This document shows positions 18,723-40,718 of a DNA stretch of 64,000 nucleotides, in pieces. The stretch's first letter is position 1. Each line of letters opens with the position of its first letter. The notes below the pieces were generated by a model, which did no database searches, was not told where the DNA came from, and saw only the letters and a list, made by a program, of their open reading frames with translations. The translations under genes were made by a program, and so were the position numbers. This DNA comes from an uncultured Gammaproteobacteria bacterium (GTDB taxonomy: Bacteria > Patescibacteriota > Patescibacteriia > Magasanikbacterales > UBA922): the NCBI GenBank assembly GCA_964519725.1, contig CAZFKS010000001.1, forward strand, positions 49,406 through 113,405, given 5' to 3'.

Positions 18723-18805
18723 GTTTTGTCCTGAACCAGCTTCTGTGAACTTTTATAAGTTTAGAGGAGCTGGGTCAGACCGAGCACAACCATTGGAGTC
18801 ATTCC

Positions 18806-19246
18806 ATGTACCGTTCCGTGCTCGTCGTTCTGTTCACCGTTCTCTCCACTTCCTGCACCACGACCCAGGTCGTCACCGACCCGCCGGCGCCCGCCTACGT
18901 CCGCGACCCGCGGCTCGGAGGCGACCCCGAGGCCCCGGAACCCGAAGTACTGAAGATCTTGGTGGAGCAGTTGAGCTCCGTTCCGGGCCTCTACCTCTTC
19001 AACCCGAAGAAGGGTGAGCTCGCCCCCGTGGAAAACGGCTACATCTACCGCTCGAAGGCGCACGTGATCACGACGATCACGGACCTGAGCGGAGAGTGGT
19101 ACTGCCAAGCCCGGGTGAGCTACTGGTTCACGAAGGACCAGACGAAGCGGTACTACTACCGCCTGAAGGGCTTCTCCATCAACGGCGGTGAGCCGTGCAG
19201 CCTGGAGCTACTCCTGAAGGACGAAGACCTGTCACCGCCCGACTAA
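18806..19246 (+). CDS. high-GC (~65%) secreted/lipoprotein-like hypothetical protein
   Basis: signal peptide MYRSVLVVLFTVLSTSC; GC3-rich codon usage unlike every neighbouring gene; alternative frames 18679..19017 and minus 18761..19108 are GC-frame artefacts. Confidence 0.45.
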   Translation: MYRSVLVVLFTVLSTSCTTTQVVTDPPAPAYVRDPRLGGDPEAPEPEVLKILVEQLSSVPGLYLFNPKKGELAPVENGYIYRSKAHVITTITDLSGEWYCQARVSYWFTKDQTKRYYYRLKGFSINGGEPCSLELLLKDEDLSPPD

Positions 19247-19293
19247 TGTCGCTCGTGAGTCGAGGCGACGCCGGCGCGGAGAACGAACACGAA

Positions 19294-19365
19294 AACCCGT
19301 TCGCCCGCCTGCTCTTAATCTAAATTTGGATTCAGAGCAGGAGGAAAAGCGAACGGGTTTTTTGT
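19294..19365 (+). terminator. large compound hairpin terminator (AACCCGTTCGC...GCGAACGGGTT + T-run)
   Basis: 11-bp outer stem with inner 8-bp stem, followed by TTTTTTG. Confidence 0.6.
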
Positions 19366-19484
19366 TTACGACTTAATATTAAGTCGATTTTTTATCTCAA
19401 TCTAAACAAAAATAAACTTTAAAATAATTAATATTTTCTTGAGGAAAATTTAAGCTGTACTTTGTTACTATTAATTTGGTGGAA

Positions 19485-31782: not shown

Positions 31783-31853
31783 ATTGACTTTTGGGAACTT
31801 TTTTTATAGAATTGGCTAAGCGAGCGTATCATATTTACCTTATTTTAGCAAAA

Positions 31854-33068
31854 ATGTTACCCAAGCCACCAGCGCGCCCAAAGTCTAGGAAATTCATTTA
31901 CCTGGACCACGCGGCCGCGACCCCCACTGCCACAGAAGTTGTCAAAGCCATGACCCCATTTTGGAGTCAGTCTTTTGCTAATCCGTCAGCTTTGTATGCC
32001 GCGGGTGTGGCGAGCCGTGAGGCGGTTGAAGCCGCGCGGGAAGTAGTGGCTGAGACTCTCAAAACTCAAGCGCGGAATATTATTTTTACGAGTGGCGGCA
32101 CTGAAGCCAATAATTTAGGTATTGTTGGATTAATTACTGAACTGAAAAAAATTCACAAAAAGTTACACATCATTACCACCGCCATTGAACATCATTCGGT
32201 TTTAAATCCAATTAAAGCCTTGGCCAAAACTGGCGTGAGCGTAACGTATTTACCAGTGAATGCACAGGGTGAAATTTCGGTAAAAGAATTAGTGAAAGCA
32301 ATTCGTCCAGACACGGCACTTATTTCAGTCATGTACGCGAACAATGAAATTGGAACCATTAATCCAATTGCGGAAATTGGCCGTGAACTTTTAAAATATC
32401 GCAAAGCACATGGCACACAATGGCCATATTTCCACACTGACGCGTGTCAGGCCACTGGTACTTTGGATTTGTCAGTGGAAAAATTGCACGTTGATTTACT
32501 AACTTTAAATGGCAGTAAAATTTACGGACCAAAAGGCAGTGGCGCCCTGTTTGCGCGCGCGGGCGTGCCTTTGTCACCAATTATGTTTGGTGGTGATCAA
32601 GAAAAAACTTTGCGCAGTGGCACAGAAAATGTGCCCGCGATTGTTGGCTTAGCCAAAGCGTTAGAATTAGTAAATAAAAATAAAATAAAAGAAGCAGCGC
32701 GCGAAGCAAAATTGCGTGATTTTTTTTGGGAAAATATTTCCAAAAAAATTCCTGGCGTTTTATTAAATGGACCAACTGAACGTTTGGCTAATAATTTAAA
32801 TGTTTGTTTTCCGGGTTTGGAAGGGGAGACACTGGCGATTTATTTAGATGCGTACGGAATTGCTTGTGCGACTGGTTCAGCCTGCGCCACAGACCAAGAC
32901 GATGCGTCACACGTGTTAATTGCTTGTGGGCGCAGTGGTGACGAAGCTAAAGCCAGTTTGCGTTTTTCATTGGGTCGTAGCACCACTAAACAAGATTTGG
33001 ATTTTGTTTTAAAATATTTACCTGACCTAGTTAAAACTTTGCGGGCCAGTGCAGCCATTAAAAAATAA
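31854..33068 (+). CDS. cysteine desulfurase (NifS/IscS-like, aminotransferase class V)
   Basis: YLDHAAATP N-terminus, SGHK-type Lys region; start ATG 31854. Confidence 0.8.
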   Translation: MLPKPPARPKSRKFIYLDHAAATPTATEVVKAMTPFWSQSFANPSALYAAGVASREAVEAAREVVAETLKTQARNIIFTSGGTEANNLGIVGLITELKKIHKKLHIITTAIEHHSVLNPIKALAKTGVSVTYLPVNAQGEISVKELVKAIRPDTALISVMYANNEIGTINPIAEIGRELLKYRKAHGTQWPYFHTDACQATGTLDLSVEKLHVDLLTLNGSKIYGPKGSGALFARAGVPLSPIMFGGDQEKTLRSGTENVPAIVGLAKALELVNKNKIKEAAREAKLRDFFWENISKKIPGVLLNGPTERLANNLNVCFPGLEGETLAIYLDAYGIACATGSACATDQDDASHVLIACGRSGDEAKASLRFSLGRSTTKQDLDFVLKYLPDLVKTLRASAAIKK

Positions 33069-33069
33069 A

Positions 33070-33133
33070 CTAAAAACCACCCGCCTCCACGCCTGAAGAG
33101 AATAATTCTCAGCAGACGCAGTGTCGGGTGGTT
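33070..33133 (+). repeat. 64-bp direct repeat copy 1 (internal hairpin with AACCACCCG/CGGGTGGTT ends and central GAGAATAATTCTC palindrome)
   Basis: 63/64 identical to copy 2; begins 1 nt after cysteine desulfurase stop. Confidence 0.8.
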
Positions 33134-33176
33134 GAGGAGGAACCAGTTGGGAGTACCCAACACTACGGCCCCTAAC

Positions 33177-33428
33177 CTAGGCGCGCACCTCCTCGCCAGT
33201 ACCTGGCAACTCTAGGAGCCACTGGAAGAATCCGATCAACCCCTGCAGAACTGCACGGATCTTTTCGGCCAGGACATACGCCTGGATGACGATTCCAGCG
33301 CCCAGGATTACTCCAAAGAGACAAGAACCCTCCACCAAGAGATCAGCTCCGAAGAGCAGCGCCCCGAGTGGTGGAGGCAGACGATCAATGAGATCTTGCA
33401 TACTTGCTCTATATATCATTTCAAGCAA
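33177..33428 (-). CDS. GC-rich small hydrophobic ORF (83 aa) inside repeat-bounded cassette
   Basis: ORF with upstream TTGACA -35 on minus strand; ~58% GC; coding status uncertain. Confidence 0.25.
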   Translation of the reverse strand: MLEMIYRASMQDLIDRLPPPLGALLFGADLLVEGSCLFGVILGAGIVIQAYVLAEKIRAVLQGLIGFFQWLLELPGTGEEVRA

Positions 33429-33447
33429 TTTGTCAATATTTACCTAA

Positions 33448-33511
33448 CTAAAAACCACCCGCCTCCACGCCTGAAGAGAATAATTCTCTGCAGACGCAGT
33501 GTCGGGTGGTT
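33448..33511 (+). repeat. 64-bp direct repeat copy 2
   Basis: single A/T difference from copy 1 at position 41. Confidence 0.8.
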
Positions 33512-33561
33512 CCCAGCACCACGGTCGCGGTGCGACTACTTAGCCTGGACCAGGCGCGTGC

Positions 33562-33663
33562 ACTCACGTTCGACCTCCGCGAGGAGGCTTTGAAAAGAGG
33601 TTAGATCCGTGATCACAAGCTTCACGTAGTGGTACATGGGGTCCTCCTGCCGAATGGTGTCGG
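33562..33663 (-). CDS. GC-rich mini-ORF (33 aa) with strong AGGAGG RBS
   Basis: MYHYVKLVITDLTSFQSLLAEVERECTRLVQAK read on minus strand; speculative. Confidence 0.2.
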
Positions 33664-33703
33664 CACATATACAGTAACCCTGAAATTGAAATATTGTCAA
33701 AAT

Positions 33704-35110
33704 ATGGCCTTACAAAAGCCAACAATTTACCTTGACCGCGCGCTCTACGATGATGCGAACATTGAGCAGGTCAAATATAAATCCAAACCCGGGTTAACGC
33801 GCGAGGTGGTTTTGGAAATTTCTAAACAAAAAAATGAACCAGAGTGGATGTTAAAAAAGCGGTTGCAGGCGTTTGATTTGTACCTGCAAACCCCGCTGCC
33901 AAGTTGGGGTCCGGATTTATCTGGGCTCGATTTAGAAAAAATTATTTATTTTGTCCGCCCAGATACAGAAGAAGCGCAGAGCTGGGAAGATGTGCCCGAA
34001 GAAATTAAAAAAACGTTTGATAAACTGGGAATTCCAGAAGCCGAAAAAACTGTGCTCGCTGGCGTGGGCGCGCAATATGACAGTGATGTGGTGTATCACA
34101 ATATCCAAAAACAACTGCGCGATAAAGGTGTAATTTTTGAAAACATGGATACGGCCGTGCAACTGTATCCCGAGCTCGTGCAAAAATATTTCATGACCCA
34201 ATGTGTGCCAATTAATGACCATAAATTTGTCATGCTTCACGCGGCCGTGTGGAGTGGGGGAACATTTATTTATGTGCCAAAAGGCGTGAAAGTTGATTTA
34301 CCACTCCAAGCCTATTTCCGGATGAATGCCAAAAGTGGCGGACAATTTGAACACACCTTAATTATTGTTGATGAAGGTGCCGAAGTGCAATACATTGAAG
34401 GCTGTTCTGCGCCGCGATATACCACAAGTTCTTTGCATGCGGGTTGTGTAGAAATTTTTGTGCACGCGAATGCGCGCGCCCGATATTATTCCATTGAAAA
34501 CTGGTCAAAAAATACTTACAACCTTAATACCAAACGCGCCTTAGTTGATGAAAATGCTGTCGTAGAATGGATTAATGGGAACATGGGCAGTGGCGTAACC
34601 ATGCTCTACCCATGTTCAGTACTACGTGGCCGGGGTGCTCGTTCAGATAGTTTAGGCGTAGCGTTTGCTGGACCAGGACAGAATCAGGACACTGGTAGCA
34701 AAGCCATTCACGCGGCGCCAGATACTAAATCTACTATTAAAGCTAAATCAATTTCGGTTGGTGGTGGAATTTCTACGTACCGTGGACTCGTGCGCGTCAC
34801 ATCAAAGGCGGAAAATTCTTCAGTCGCGGTGAATTGCGATGCACTCTTAATTGATGACGCGTCAGTTTCCAACACGTATCCAACCATGAAAATTGATCAA
34901 GCCAAAGTGGATATGGCGCACGAAGCGACAGTGGGAAAAATTGGTGATGATGAAATTTTTTATTTGCGTTCCCGCGGACTCAGTGAAGATCAAGCGCGAC
35001 AAATGGTGGTCGCTGGTTTTATTGAACCAATTGTGAAAGCTTTACCACTGGAATACGCCGTGGAATTAAATAAATTAATTGAACTGGAAATGGAAGGGTC
35101 AGTCGGCTAG
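33704..35110 (+). CDS. sufB: Fe-S cluster assembly protein SufB
   Basis: full-length SufB; start at ATG 33704. Confidence 0.85.
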   Translation: MALQKPTIYLDRALYDDANIEQVKYKSKPGLTREVVLEISKQKNEPEWMLKKRLQAFDLYLQTPLPSWGPDLSGLDLEKIIYFVRPDTEEAQSWEDVPEEIKKTFDKLGIPEAEKTVLAGVGAQYDSDVVYHNIQKQLRDKGVIFENMDTAVQLYPELVQKYFMTQCVPINDHKFVMLHAAVWSGGTFIYVPKGVKVDLPLQAYFRMNAKSGGQFEHTLIIVDEGAEVQYIEGCSAPRYTTSSLHAGCVEIFVHANARARYYSIENWSKNTYNLNTKRALVDENAVVEWINGNMGSGVTMLYPCSVLRGRGARSDSLGVAFAGPGQNQDTGSKAIHAAPDTKSTIKAKSISVGGGISTYRGLVRVTSKAENSSVAVNCDALLIDDASVSNTYPTMKIDQAKVDMAHEATVGKIGDDEIFYLRSRGLSEDQARQMVVAGFIEPIVKALPLEYAVELNKLIELEMEGSVG

Positions 35111-35111
35111 T

Positions 35112-35780
35112 ATGCAAATTATTATTCCAAATACTGAACAGAATTTTGAGCTGAAGATTGCCGAAAATACATTGATTTTAGATTGTAATAAAATTAATGG
35201 TGAATTTAAACGGCATATTAGTATTCAAAAAGGTGCGCGCGTAAAATATATTGATTTGCAAATTGGTGAGGGAAATAGTGAACGAAATAGTGAAACAATT
35301 ATTGAATTAGCGGGTGAAAATGCTGAGGTAGAATTGTTAGGTTTATTTGCGGGGCAGGGGAATGATAATTTAAAAATCTCGCACAAAGTTATTCACGCCG
35401 CACCACATACCACTTCAAAATTAGAAGCGCGTGGAATTTTAACTGACTCAGCCTTTGCCCACCAAATTAGTTCGATTGCAATTTTACCTAATCAAAACGG
35501 TTGTGCTGGCGACGAGCGCTCTGATACAATTTTACTGTCTGACAATGCGCGCGTAATTGCGGTACCAGAACTGGAAATTGGGAATAATGATGTGACGTGC
35601 AAGCACGCCGTGACCACTACACGCCTGAGTCCAGAAAAATTATTTTATTTAGCCACGCGTGGATTAGATGAAGCGAGCAGCCGGAAATTATTAGTCGAAG
35701 CACATTTAAATGGTTTGGTTGAACATATTCCAGAAGTTTTGTGCACTGAGCTGGCCTTAGATTTTTCTAATTTTACGTAA
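35112..35780 (+). CDS. sufD: Fe-S cluster assembly protein SufD (short form)
   Basis: SufB/SufD beta-helix C-terminal region; 222 aa. Confidence 0.65.
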   Translation: MQIIIPNTEQNFELKIAENTLILDCNKINGEFKRHISIQKGARVKYIDLQIGEGNSERNSETIIELAGENAEVELLGLFAGQGNDNLKISHKVIHAAPHTTSKLEARGILTDSAFAHQISSIAILPNQNGCAGDERSDTILLSDNARVIAVPELEIGNNDVTCKHAVTTTRLSPEKLFYLATRGLDEASSRKLLVEAHLNGLVEHIPEVLCTELALDFSNFT

Positions 35781-35786
35781 ACAAAA

Positions 35787-35805
35787 CCGACCCGGTTAGG
35801 GTCGG
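35787..35805 (+). terminator. hairpin CCGACCC-GGTTA-GGGTCGG after sufD (weak T-run)
   Basis: read directly. Confidence 0.35.
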
Positions 35806-36136
35806 TATGTTCCACGACATATCTTTGCCTATAACAACGTTGTAAGCAAAGTGTGTGCCGTGGAACCTCCTTTCAGGTGCGTGGCACGCTCACCTGGGCG
35901 GGTTGGTGGAGAACACAACAGTCATCGTGACCGTCGTCTCCGGTGGGAGCTTGGCGATCTGGCCTTCAAGAAGGCCTTTCACCATGCTCACTACGGGATC
36001 GACTGCTTCTGCAGTCGAAGGGATTTCGCGCCGATCCTGGTTAGTATGCTCGCCGTAGGTGACGAGCGTACCATCAGTCTGGCGCGAAACACTAAATGAT
36101 ACTCGCATGGCCCCAAAATACCTGTTTCTAAAAAAT

Positions 36137-37330
36137 ATGTCAAACCAATTTACGGAAAATTTTCCCGCCCTAAAAACCAATTCTGAATTGGTGTATTTGG
36201 ATTCAGCGGCCAGCAGTTTGAAATGTGAGGTGGCGATTGAAGCGATGGAGAAATATTATCGCGAAAATGGGGCAAATATTCACCGTGGTTTGTATGATTT
36301 GTCAGAAGCAGCAACCGCGCAGTACGAAGACGCACGGCAGACCGTGGCGAATTTTATTAAGGCTGAAAAAAACGAAATTATTTTTACTAGCGGTACAACT
36401 GGTAGTTTAAATTTGGCCGCACGTTTATTAGAACAAAAAATTAAACCTGGTGATGAAATTGTTTTGACCCGGTTTGAACATCATGCGAATTTAATTCCGT
36501 GGCAACAGGTGGCCAAACGCACAGGCGCAGTTTTAAAATTTATTGAACTTGATGCGGATTATCATTTAGATTGGCAGTCAGCGGAACAAGTAATTGGGCC
36601 AAAAACAAAAATTGTGGCCTTTAGTGCGGCTTCAAATGTGCTTGGGACACTTATAAATGTTAATGAATTAGTGCGAATTGGCAAAAAATATAATGCCTAT
36701 ACCGTAGTTGATGCGGCCCAATACGCCGCGCACCGTGAAATTGATGTCAAAGCCTGGGGCGCAGATTTTGTCGCTTTTTCTGGGCACAAATTATATGGCC
36801 CAACTGGGCTTGGGGTTTTATTTGGAAAAAAAGAATTATTAGCTGAATTAGAACCAGTAAATTTTGGCGGGGACATGATCCGCACTGTAACCTATGAAAA
36901 TTCGACCTGGGCAGATGTGCCATACAAATTTGAACCAGGTACACCACCAATTGCTGAAGTGATTGGACTGGTAGCCGCAATTAAATTTATTGCGAGTATT
37001 GGATGGGATAATTTATCCAATCATGAAAATGAACTTGTAAATTACGCACTCCAAAAATTAACTGACGTGAATATTATTGGACCAAAAGGGGACAGACGTT
37101 TGCCAATTTTCTCGTTCACGCTTGGTGATGCGCACCCACATGATGTAGCGGAAATTTTAAATCGCGAACACATTGCCGTGCGTGCTGGTCACCACTGCGC
37201 CATGCCGCTCATGAATCATTTGGGCTTGGTTGGCACTACACGCGCGTCGTTTGGGATGTACACAACCAAAAAAGATATTGACCAATTGGCAGCCGGAATT
37301 ATCAAGGCCAAAGAAATTTTAAAAGTATGA
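36137..37330 (+). CDS. sufS: cysteine desulfurase SufS
   Basis: group II desulfurase motifs incl. HKLYGPTGLGVL and RAGHHCA; start ATG 36137. Confidence 0.85.
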   Translation: MSNQFTENFPALKTNSELVYLDSAASSLKCEVAIEAMEKYYRENGANIHRGLYDLSEAATAQYEDARQTVANFIKAEKNEIIFTSGTTGSLNLAARLLEQKIKPGDEIVLTRFEHHANLIPWQQVAKRTGAVLKFIELDADYHLDWQSAEQVIGPKTKIVAFSAASNVLGTLINVNELVRIGKKYNAYTVVDAAQYAAHREIDVKAWGADFVAFSGHKLYGPTGLGVLFGKKELLAELEPVNFGGDMIRTVTYENSTWADVPYKFEPGTPPIAEVIGLVAAIKFIASIGWDNLSNHENELVNYALQKLTDVNIIGPKGDRRLPIFSFTLGDAHPHDVAEILNREHIAVRAGHHCAMPLMNHLGLVGTTRASFGMYTTKKDIDQLAAGIIKAKEILKV

Positions 37331-39594: not shown

Positions 39595-39675
39595 TTTACC
39601 TTGATTTTTTATTATAAATAAGCTAAATTAAGCGCGCTTTGACAGCGTTTACCAAGGGGGTGAGCGACTTGTCGA

Positions 39676-40569
39676 ATGGGGGTATACATGAATCTCACAG
39701 TCGCGCCGACCGCCATTAAGGCGGTCAACGAAGCGCTCGAACACAACGACCGAGTGGGCTGGAAGCCCGCGCTCGGCCTCGTGCTCGGCACGGGCCTCGG
39801 CAAGGTTGCCGAGCTCGTCGAAGATCCCATCAAACTGCCTTTCAGCAAGCTGTGGCCCGAGGTCACCAGCAAACTGGAGGGGCACGCCAAGGAGCTCATT
39901 CTCGGCGACATCGGGGGTCTCCCGGTCGCGGTCTTCTCCGGACGGATCCACGGCTACGAGGGGTACGAGCCGAACGTCGTGGTTCAGCCGGTACTGCTCG
40001 CGCAGGCGCTCGCCGCCGAGAGCATCGTGCTGACGAACGCGGCCGGCGCCCTGAACACTGACCTGGCCAAGGGCCAGATCCTCGTGCTCAGCGATCATAT
40101 CAACCTCACCGGGCGCTCGCCGCTCAAGGGCCCGAACAACGAGGCCCTGGGCACGCGCTTCCCGGGACAGGGGGCCATCTACGGCCGCCACAAGGACCTG
40201 ACGGCCCGCGTCATGAGCGAGTTCAAGGCCACAGTCCTCAAATCGGGACAGATCGAGCCGCGCAACGGCGTCTATCTCGGGGTCAACGGCCCTGAATTCG
40301 AGACCCCGGCTGAGGTCAAGATGATGCGCGGCCTCGGCGCCGACGTCGTCGGCATGTCGACGGTCCACGAGGCCATCACGGCCAACTGGCTCGGCCTCGG
40401 CGTCATCGGCCTCAGTCTGGTGACCAATGCCACGGGCACGGCCCACGAAGAAGGCGAGATCTCGCACGCCGAAGTGCAGGAAGCCGGCCGAGAAGCTGGT
40501 CCTCGTCTCGTGAAGTTCACGAAGCTCCTTCTGGAGGCGTACCGCAAGGACGTCTTCAAGAAGAGCTGA
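39676..40569 (+). CDS. purine nucleoside phosphorylase (PNP/MTAP family), encoded in a ~65% GC island
   Basis: GTGLG P-loop-like, LTNAAG, VGMSTVHE motifs of PNP family 2; the 454-aa antisense ORF 39649..41013 is a GC-frame artefact. Confidence 0.7.
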   Translation: MGVYMNLTVAPTAIKAVNEALEHNDRVGWKPALGLVLGTGLGKVAELVEDPIKLPFSKLWPEVTSKLEGHAKELILGDIGGLPVAVFSGRIHGYEGYEPNVVVQPVLLAQALAAESIVLTNAAGALNTDLAKGQILVLSDHINLTGRSPLKGPNNEALGTRFPGQGAIYGRHKDLTARVMSEFKATVLKSGQIEPRNGVYLGVNGPEFETPAEVKMMRGLGADVVGMSTVHEAITANWLGLGVIGLSLVTNATGTAHEEGEISHAEVQEAGREAGPRLVKFTKLLLEAYRKDVFKKS

Positions 40570-40718
40570 AGGGCCGCTGTCTGTGCGCCCATCGCCCCTC
40601 CTCTCTGGGAGCGCCCGCGCGCTCCCACCCCAATCCTTTCTCTCCGCCCGCCAGGGTGGAGTTTTATTTAGGGTTTTACTTTTTCTAAAATGTGGTATTA
40701 TTGAGCTAATTATTTTAT

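Follow-up and report, generated by a model that had tools for sequence, protein, structure and literature searches.

A long conserved hairpin with the form of a terminator behind variable antisense mini-genes in the suf operon of Candidatus Magasanikbacteria

The DNA considered here, hereafter the window, is a stretch of 64,000 nucleotides from contig CAZFKS010000001.1 (assembly GCA_964519725.1), and the element of interest is a long hairpin, called H, which occurs twice between a nifS-like gene and sufB. The gene order fnr (on the minus strand), nifS-like, sufB, sufD, sufS is common to the window and to its relatives among Candidatus Magasanikbacteria (candidate phyla radiation (CPR), or Patescibacteria), the group to which the relatives of its SufB assign the host. 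The gap between nifS and sufB measures 635 bp in the window and holds, on the minus strand, two small open reading frames (ORFs), each preceded by a promoter-like element and followed by a copy of H (Table 1). All 15 known members of the H family, from 11 loci, lie at this nifS-sufB site.

Table 1. Features of the nifS-sufB site and its two anchor genes, in window coordinates.
Feature	Position	Strand	Remarks
NifS/IscS-like class-V aminotransferase gene (left anchor)	31791..33068	+	Pfam Aminotran_5, E 4e-75
Hairpin H copy 1	33068..33133, core 33075-33133	-	Terminator-like end of the ORF1 unit; then UUUUUAGUU on the minus strand
ORF1, 74-aa small membrane protein, one predicted transmembrane (TM) helix	33177..33401	-	Seven homologues at 42-52% identity
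Promoter-like P1	33408..33436	-	TTGACA 33436-33431, 17-nt spacer, TATAGA 33413-33408
Hairpin H copy 2 (internal)	33446..33511	-	Terminator-like end of the ORF2 unit; also in L001
ORF2, 33-aa candidate gene	33536..33637	-	AGGAGG 33648-33643, 5 nt upstream of the ATG
Promoter-like P2, -35 box TTGACA	33695..33700	-	Three nt from the sufB ATG
sufB (right anchor)	33704..35110	+	Pfam SUFBD_core, E 1e-79; L001 protein identical

The two copies of H were recovered by a repeat search of the window as a 66-nt direct repeat, 65/66 identical and spaced 378 nt apart. An earlier reading of the letters alone (the sequence-only reading) had described a 64-nt repeat with a single mismatch; the repeat and its mismatch stand, and the length is corrected to 66 nt. 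The hairpin core comprises 59 nt and has two matches in the window with up to 3 mismatches, whereas 100 shuffles yielded no match at all. Copy 1 begins within the TAA stop codon of the nifS-like gene, and the flanking DNA of the two copies differs directly beyond the repeat ends, as had been noticed before. An independent assembly (Logan contig L001, run SRR11567520) is identical to the window over the DNA that carries ORF2 (cargo 2), H copy 2 and sufB. It ends within the repeat, as is usual for assemblies at repeats.

Further copies of H were looked for, and none was found in the rest of the window or in the 4-6 kb flanks of the relatives' loci. An exact 28-mer of H had no match in genome, viral and metagenome contig collections, nor had a degenerate pattern of its base (25 specified bases) in metagenome and viral collections. 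The whole insertion was compared with phages and plasmids by blastn and gave no match. In Rfam, at both gathering and E-value thresholds, no relevant family was found for H, the single match being a chance microRNA (E 0.66).

Folded as RNA, H differs markedly between the strands. The minus-strand RNA of the two window copies reaches −35.1 and −44.1 kcal/mol (z −5.9 and −8.1), and the plus strand about −27 kcal/mol. Across the family, all 15 copies give −34 to −41 kcal/mol as minus-strand RNA, with a U-rich tail after each, and in every one of them the strand that carries the small genes is the more stable, by 5-15 kcal/mol. A U-run (GGUGGUUUUUAGUU) stands directly 3′ of H on the minus strand only, and the plus strand has no U-tract. 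The covariance model R1, built from five H copies, scores copy 1 of the window at 87.8 bits on the minus strand vs 33.7 bits on the plus strand, and copy 2 at 88.2 bits; across the H copies, the scores are 68-91 bits on the small-gene strand vs 23-44 bits on the other. In all loci H lies downstream of an ORF, 20-45 nt 3′ of its stop codon. On the small-gene strand, H has the form of an intrinsic terminator, and termination would be its simplest function. Folding of the repeat, which had been proposed as a check, does yield a stable hairpin; what had been overlooked is this terminator form on the small-gene strand.

The base of the hairpin, CCACCCGA(C/G)ACUGC ... GGAGGCGGGUGG, is invariant in the 15 copies except at the C/G position and contains a segment that reads CCUCC on the plus and GGAGG on the minus strand. 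The consensus comprises 25 pairs; its internal loops (3x3 and 1x1/2x2) are symmetric, and it lacks bulges. The inner stem shows compensatory changes, with 96% of the alignment cells paired (15 copies, 11 loci). In the alignment, which was fitted to model R1, double-sided changes occur in 10 of the 25 pairs; shuffled alignments gave 4.2 ± 1.1 (0/500), and slid controls never exceeded 5. A U-G pair at columns 23/58 is invariant, and columns 24/56 and 27/53 are mostly G-U or U-G. These conserved pairs are possible on the small-gene strand only, as on the plus strand they become A-C mismatches. Covariation, G-U pairs and U-run together are the signature of an RNA hairpin which would act on the transcript of the small genes.

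Two variants of the inner stem exist. In L082, L087 and L089 (the relatives' loci are numbered in this way throughout), the internal copy is of one type and the nifS-side copy of the other, and the type is independent of the preceding gene. In the window, both copies are of the same type and differ at one base, which implies a recent duplication or gene conversion. Tandem duplication of a whole unit followed by divergence was rejected as an origin of the two units, because the two window cargos have no similarity while the hairpins differ at 1/66 positions.

The DNA between the desulfurase gene and sufB had been taken for an insertion, and the comparison with empty sites agrees. Both genes could be located in 23 relatives; 11 of these have a nifS-sufB gap of 0-25 bp, and the other 12 have one of 105-1201 bp. 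Since such short gaps are found in 11 of the 23, the 635 bp of the window can be regarded as an insertion relative to many relatives. The relatives in which nifS directly adjoins sufB have no H. Conversely, the GTDB representatives L002, L004 and L016 carry a homologous H directly after the nifS stop codon, then a GC-rich minus-strand ORF and then a TTGACA that abuts the sufB ATG. When the gap insertions were compared all-against-all, the only shared DNA was H.

The loci differ in the number, identity and order of their units. Read on the small-gene strand from sufB to nifS, with P for a promoter-like site, the window has P-ORF2-H, then P-ORF1-H. L087 and L088 have P-ORF-A (50 aa)-H, then P-Zn74-Zn83-ORF1-H, and L002 has P-ORF-A-H (50 aa). 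L089 and L090 begin with a P-141 aa-H and a P-65 aa-H unit, respectively, each followed by P-ORF1-H; L083, L084, L085 and L086 have P-ORF1-H. In L082, P-Zn74-Zn82-ORF1-H is followed by an extra unit on the nifS side, P-149 aa-H, and in L004 and L016 a single P-ORF-H unit holds an unrelated TM ORF (89 or 127 aa). The cargo next to sufB is thus a 33-aa ORF in the window, 50 aa in L002 and L087, 141 aa in L089 and 65 aa in L090, and it is absent from L083, L085 and L086. A neighbour-joining tree of SufB shows a core clade that is uniformly H-positive; L004, with H, is sister to L003, with an empty site, and L016, likewise with H, has as sisters L024 (empty) and L025, in whose gap an unrelated gene lies on the plus strand. 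As the H-positive L004 and L016 have empty-site sisters, H may have been lost repeatedly or have spread, for which this rough single-gene tree is weak evidence.

A single clean case of unit gain or loss was observed. L002 and L087 have flanks 80-94% identical and differ by a clean 866-bp segment (P-Zn74-Zn83-ORF1), bounded by the two H copies of L087. The single H of L002 is chimeric: its left flank is that of the internal H of L087, whereas its inner stem and right flank are those of the nifS-side H, which places the crossover in the first ~20 nt of H. This pattern is what recombination between direct H repeats, homologous or site-specific, would leave, and integration of a circular unit would fit it equally.

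ORF1 is the constant part of the array. Its exact protein is present in NCBI, and it contains the conserved motifs DRLPFPL and ELPGTGEEV and one hydrophobic helix (Kyte-Doolittle maximum 2.2). When ORF1 was used as the query of a word-indexed protein search, it matched only itself, and the same holds for ORF3 (described below). A full HMMER search against 1.84 billion representatives gave two full-length relatives, and a profile search extended the family to eight members at 42-52% identity; two further HMMER matches, the long repeat proteins P0007 and P0008, were set aside as apparent composition artefacts. Invariant in the family are D-x-LP-x-P near the N-terminus and PGTGE near the C-terminus, which flank the hydrophobic helix. 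DNA similarity of ORF1 to its orthologues is weak. The family is a real gene family, clearly constrained at the protein level. It is without annotation in all of its eight members. The AlphaFold model of ORF1 is a single long helix of low confidence (predicted local distance difference test score, pLDDT, 64). The start is almost certainly the ATG at 33401, because the NCBI sequence and the homologues have the 74-aa length; the 83-aa form of the sequence-only reading, which had rightly recognised a hydrophobic peptide with TTGACA upstream, starts at a TTG within the promoter.

Genomic context was obtained for five of the seven ORF1 homologues. All five are antisense beside a nifS-like gene and are followed by H, they lie between that gene and sufB wherever the locus is long enough for both, and the SufB of these loci is 92-93% identical to that of the window. 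Model R1 detected H in every locus recovered via ORF1 homologues. The shared position is unbiased, since the homologues were found by protein similarity and not by locus, and ORF1 with H can therefore be taken as an old, apparently vertically kept component of the nifS-sufB site in its clade. Conservation of the repeat and the intervening DNA as a unit had been named as the observation that would speak against a mobile insertion. It holds in part: H and ORF1 are kept together wherever a homologue was found, with no extra copies, and their persistence at one locus argues against a freely mobile insertion.

The other cargo is of a different kind. ORF2, the 33-aa minus-strand frame with an AGGAGG ribosome-binding site that had been predicted earlier, is present and is not hydrophobic. 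No relative of it was found in the protein collection, nor by tblastx or blastn among the relatives' loci, phages and plasmids, so that the small-protein homology search yielded seven homologues for the 74-aa ORF1 and none for ORF2. Cargo 2 shows no unusual RNA structure once the hairpin is left out (z −1.8). When 10 cargo proteins were compared with Pfam, PADLOC and PHROG, no match rose above threshold; sub-threshold Zn-ribbon hints were seen for two, and PHROG matches were absent or very weak (best E 0.0055).

Expression signals accompany these genes, and the TTGACA and AGGAGG noticed before are both present on the minus strand with their ORFs. A promoter-like TTGACA-17-TATAxT site stands ahead of each ORF in the window, L002, L004, L083, L087, L089 and L090. 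At the sufB end, the junction CATATTGACA, which contains the antisense -35 box, abuts sufB also in L002, L004, L083, L087 and L089, where the TTGACA-17-TATAxT spacing is good. An ATTGACA module follows the internal H in L082, L087, L089 and L090, as at P1. In the window, the ORF1 mRNA looks leaderless because 6 nt separate the -10 box of P1 from the ATG; in L083, L089 and L090, a leader of 25-30 nt that includes a Shine-Dalgarno (SD) sequence precedes the orthologue. As a separate observation, sufB has no recognisable ribosome-binding site of its own, since the 10 nt before its ATG are the antisense -35 box.

The composition of the cargo is foreign to its surroundings. The cassette DNA had been described as GC-rich (~58%), and GC is indeed 57% for 33134-33400 and 59% for 33512-33660, as compared with 43% for the window. 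GC at third codon positions (GC3) is 0.32-0.47 in host genes of the window and 0.14-0.53 in those of the relatives, and 0.60-0.86 in all cargo ORFs, including the ORF1 orthologues (0.61 in ORF1, 0.74 in ORF2). A Pfam scan was made of 46 window proteins. It took in every ORF of 296-422 aa that is not a suf gene, together with most ORFs of 128-153 aa. Matches were obtained for 43 of the 46, all housekeeping except a foreign-looking phosphorylase; ORF1, ORF2 and ORF3 make up the rest. In this set, no domain of an integrase, a transposase or a REP-associated tyrosine transposase (RAYT) was found.

Taken together, these data are best explained, with a probability of about 0.65, if H is a conserved strand-specific intrinsic terminator which closes each unit in an array of antisense mini-genes; this array would be bound to the nifS-sufB site of a single Candidatus Magasanikbacteria clade and variable in content. 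The first unit on the minus strand would run from P2, abutting the sufB ATG, through ORF2 to H copy 2; the second from P1 through ORF1 to H copy 1, whose end falls at the nifS stop codon. At H, antisense transcripts would be halted before they reach the next unit or nifS. The operon strand, on which H is less stable and lacks the U-run, could still be read through from nifS to sufB. The sufB-proximal unit, which differs between close relatives, would be replaceable cargo. Units would be gained and lost by recombination between H copies, either homologous, through the ~60-nt repeats, or site-specific. Deletion between 60-nt direct repeats needs no special enzyme.

Several observations weigh against this explanation. 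The basal segment CCACCCGAcACUGC...GGAGGCGGGUGG is invariant although the NifS proteins are only 53-69% identical across the genomes, and a constraint above that usual for terminators hints at a further, sequence-specific role. H is also long, with 25 pairs and internal loops, whereas the other terminators in the window are short and simple. P2 lacks a convincing -10 box in the source genome, ORF2 is without homologues and may not be a gene, and vertical inheritance in an AT-rich host does not account for a GC3 that stays high in all of the cargo. The clean H-bounded indel was seen in one case only. The statement that H occurs nowhere else covers 64 kb of the source genome, on a contig of 193 kb in total, and 4-6 kb of the relatives' flanks. 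What the analysis shows is the anatomy, conservation, covariation and strand asymmetry of H, the ORF1 homologues bound to the locus, the polymorphism for presence or absence and the one indel between H copies; termination, promoter activity, the mechanism of recombination and the protein functions are inferred.

Compared with ordinary intrinsic terminators, H shares the GC-rich stem base, the U-run directly after it, the position 20-45 nt past a stop codon, strand specificity and the placement of one copy at the end of each unit. It differs from them in its much greater length, in the invariance of the basal 12-14 nt of each arm across otherwise very different genomes, and in being re-used behind unrelated genes and coinciding with indel breakpoints. 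The units themselves recall phage 'morons', which are reportedly autonomous promoter-ORF-terminator modules. Each unit of the array is likewise self-contained, deviant in composition and placed between genes that are adjacent in relatives; unlike morons, the array is not in a prophage, is flanked by housekeeping genes of Fe-S assembly and has no phage matches, its units are antisense to the operon and share a single conserved terminator, and the ORF1 unit is kept across the clade.

Part of what burdens the terminator explanation would be accounted for if H were a recombination site. H could be the analogue of attC in an integron-like system, comparable to clusters of attC sites lacking integrases (CALINs), with the recombinase encoded elsewhere; this enzyme would fold one strand of H and insert or excise circular promoter-ORF-H units. 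More specifically, H could be the recognition hairpin of an undescribed, integrase-distant cassette-capture system of CPR bacteria, which would draw promoter-bearing GC-rich mini-genes from a common pool and exchange them at this one place in the suf operon. Such a system, if real, would account for the invariant base of H, the permuted unit order, the chimeric H of L002 and the foreign composition. Its chance of being right is small but real. In its favour are the tandem, same-orientation arrays of unrelated, mostly orphan small ORFs, each closed by a conserved, imperfect hairpin about as long as an attC site (~60 nt), in which the base is conserved, the tip varies and an internal loop resembles an unpaired central spacer. 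H copies are similar within an array, and at least two same-orientation sites occur within 4 kb in the window (378 bp apart) and in L082, L087, L089 and L090 (two each). Cargo is unrelated between units and between relatives, units come and go at hairpins (as in the H-bounded indel with its crossover in the first ~20 nt of H), their order permutes, the Zn-Zn-ORF1 unit being first in L082 and second in L087, and the base of H is conserved beyond the needs of a terminator. However, the RYYYAAC/GTTRRRY cores are absent from both strands of the 15 copies, as checked by eye: AAC/GTT stands at the outer rather than the inner stem end and the flanks do not fit, with an R'' fit in L083 alone, by chance, and an R' fit in none of the 15. 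The internal loops are symmetric and lack extrahelical bases, each unit has its own promoter-like site, arrays hold only 1-2 units, and all copies occupy one fixed chromosomal site inside an operon, next to fnr, nifS and sufB, with no integrase or transposase domain in the 46 proteins scanned. The conserved G-U pairs and the U-run point to a role as RNA, and deletion between repeats of this length could proceed without a dedicated enzyme. The attC reading in the strict sense was rejected on core motifs, symmetry and the promoters in the units, and the doubt that the sequence-only reading had cast on it was justified. That reading had also envisaged a mobile cassette or a pair of recombination sites; of this, the modular organisation stands, with H marking the points of gain and loss, and dispersed copies were not found in the DNA searched. 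Its suggestion of a MITE-like insertion belongs to a related reading, in which H is a miniature inverted-repeat transposable element (MITE), a repetitive extragenic palindromic (REP) sequence or another dispersed non-autonomous element that landed twice in the suf operon; this reading is barely credible. H is a near-identical, imperfect palindromic repeat in intergenic DNA, GC-rich in an AT-rich genome, and in this respect resembles MITEs, REP sequences and bacterial interspersed mosaic elements (BIMEs). It is nevertheless not dispersed: counting of copies gave two in 64 kb, both here, all 15 family members lie at the nifS-sufB site, and the phage, plasmid and viral collections held no match. 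Target-site duplications and paired terminal inverted repeats are lacking, each unit having one hairpin and a promoter at its other end, and none of the scanned window proteins showed a transposase domain, whether Y1/RAYT or other. The MITE/REP reading was rejected on copy number, ends and location.

The two remaining alternatives concern what the hairpin or its cargo does. The cargo may consist of modules resembling type I toxin-antitoxin loci, an idea of the sequence-only reading that the data neither support nor exclude, ORF1 and the small TM peptides of relatives being membrane toxins whose mRNAs are neutralised by the complementary suf read-through transcript or by an unseen small RNA. 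H would then stabilise and terminate the toxin mRNA, so that this idea is compatible with H as the terminator of the units; as an account of the cargo its chances are small. It recalls loci such as ldr, ibs/sib and zor/orz, in which genes for small membrane peptides, each with a promoter of its own and a strong hairpin at the 3′ end, lie, sometimes in tandem, in intergenic gaps and are overlapped by complementary transcription. ORF1 and the cargo of L002/L087, L004, L005, L007, L011 and L016 are small, hydrophobic, antisense and often tandem, any nifS-sufB read-through RNA is necessarily complementary to a whole unit, and long stable 3′ hairpins are typical of stable toxin mRNAs. Against it, ORF1 has 74 aa, 42-52% identity and conserved soluble, non-membrane motifs, whereas most type I toxins are shorter than 60 aa; ORF2, the two Zn-ribbon proteins and the 141-, 149- and 65-aa proteins are not hydrophobic; a scan for consensus promoters found none on the plus strand within the units, and no dedicated antitoxin RNA was identified; and PADLOC, Pfam and PHROG gave no matches. 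A different proposal is that H works on the plus strand, in the nifS-sufB mRNA, where it would take part in cis-regulation or processing, the small ORFs being incidental; the invariant CCGCCUCC could sequester an SD-like sequence, or H could be an RNase site or a stabiliser. The CCUCC of the invariant base (GGAGG on the minus strand), the start of H at the nifS stop codon in every locus and the missing SD sequence of sufB are consistent with it. Such a role is unlikely because H is strand-asymmetric, with the consistently weaker structure and the A-C mismatches on the plus strand. In addition, internal H copies lie 190-870 bp from either host gene, relatives with adjacent nifS and sufB lack H altogether, and ORF1 is clearly under protein-level constraint.

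Antisense small genes are also found outside the H family. Within the window, ORF3 (72 aa, 35890-36108) is a third antisense mini-gene (35786-36143, minus strand), placed between sufD and sufS. It has a TTGACA-17-TATTTT promoter, which shares bases with the sufS start (ATGTCAA), and a short terminator (35806-35786) different from H. The exact ORF3 protein occurs in NCBI and Logan, and its DNA is partly conserved in L083, L085 and L086. Other suf gaps of relatives contain small, mostly hydrophobic antisense ORFs (L083 2848-3468, L005 6358-6700, L007 3510-3967, L011 3355-3973), each with its own TTGACA-like and terminator-like signals. Antisense mini-genes in suf gaps thus seem to be a wider habit of the group, beyond the hairpin family. 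Diverged analogous hairpins were seen in more distant relatives, in the sufD-sufS gap of L005 and, in an AT-rich version, in L007.

Some further features of the window were recorded. The SufD-like gene (35079-35780, plus strand) shares 32 nt with the 3′ end of sufB, and its short product of 233 aa aligns with SUFBD_core over the C-terminal portion alone; SufD is longer in several relatives. At 24667-25038 on the plus strand, between the ORFs 24094-24585 and 25105-25623, both without a Pfam match, there is a group I catalytic intron (RF00028, 77.6 bits) that matches the model over its full length. Two GC-rich islands, 18742-19362 and 39620-40706, have 60% and 63% GC and GC3 of 0.88 and 0.86. 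The former contains a 146-aa lipoprotein-like orphan right after tRNA-Thr, and the latter a purine-nucleoside-phosphorylase-like gene (PNP_UDP_1). Both have their own promoter-like and terminator-like sites and look like recent imports from high-GC donors. The terminator of the first island (19286-19368) gives a weak R1 match (20 bits, E 0.007). As the window holds two islands of foreign composition, the lineage does take up GC-rich genes.

The ingredients of this locus are known singly, namely terminators, moron-like autonomous units, cassette arrays and antisense small genes. Their combination appears to be new: one long, conserved hairpin recurs behind GC-rich mini-genes of unrelated kinds, always at the same place in the suf operon. 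No counterpart of it was found in Rfam or in searches of the literature on integrons and attC in Patescibacteria and on horizontal gene transfer in Magasanikbacteria. CPR genomes are small and rich in orphan genes, and their gene acquisition and turnover are little understood. The nifS-sufB locus is a compact, comparably sampled case (11 loci, 15 hairpins) in which an essential operon for Fe-S assembly receives small genes, always in reverse orientation and as what look like complete transcription units with H as their boundary. The constantly high GC3 of the cargo in AT-rich hosts is a compositional signal worth following. If H is a terminator only, the locus would still be a clear example from nature of a terminator module put to repeated use and of genes lying antisense within an operon, where transcriptional interference with sufB may occur. 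If H is also a recombination site, it would define a new cassette system.

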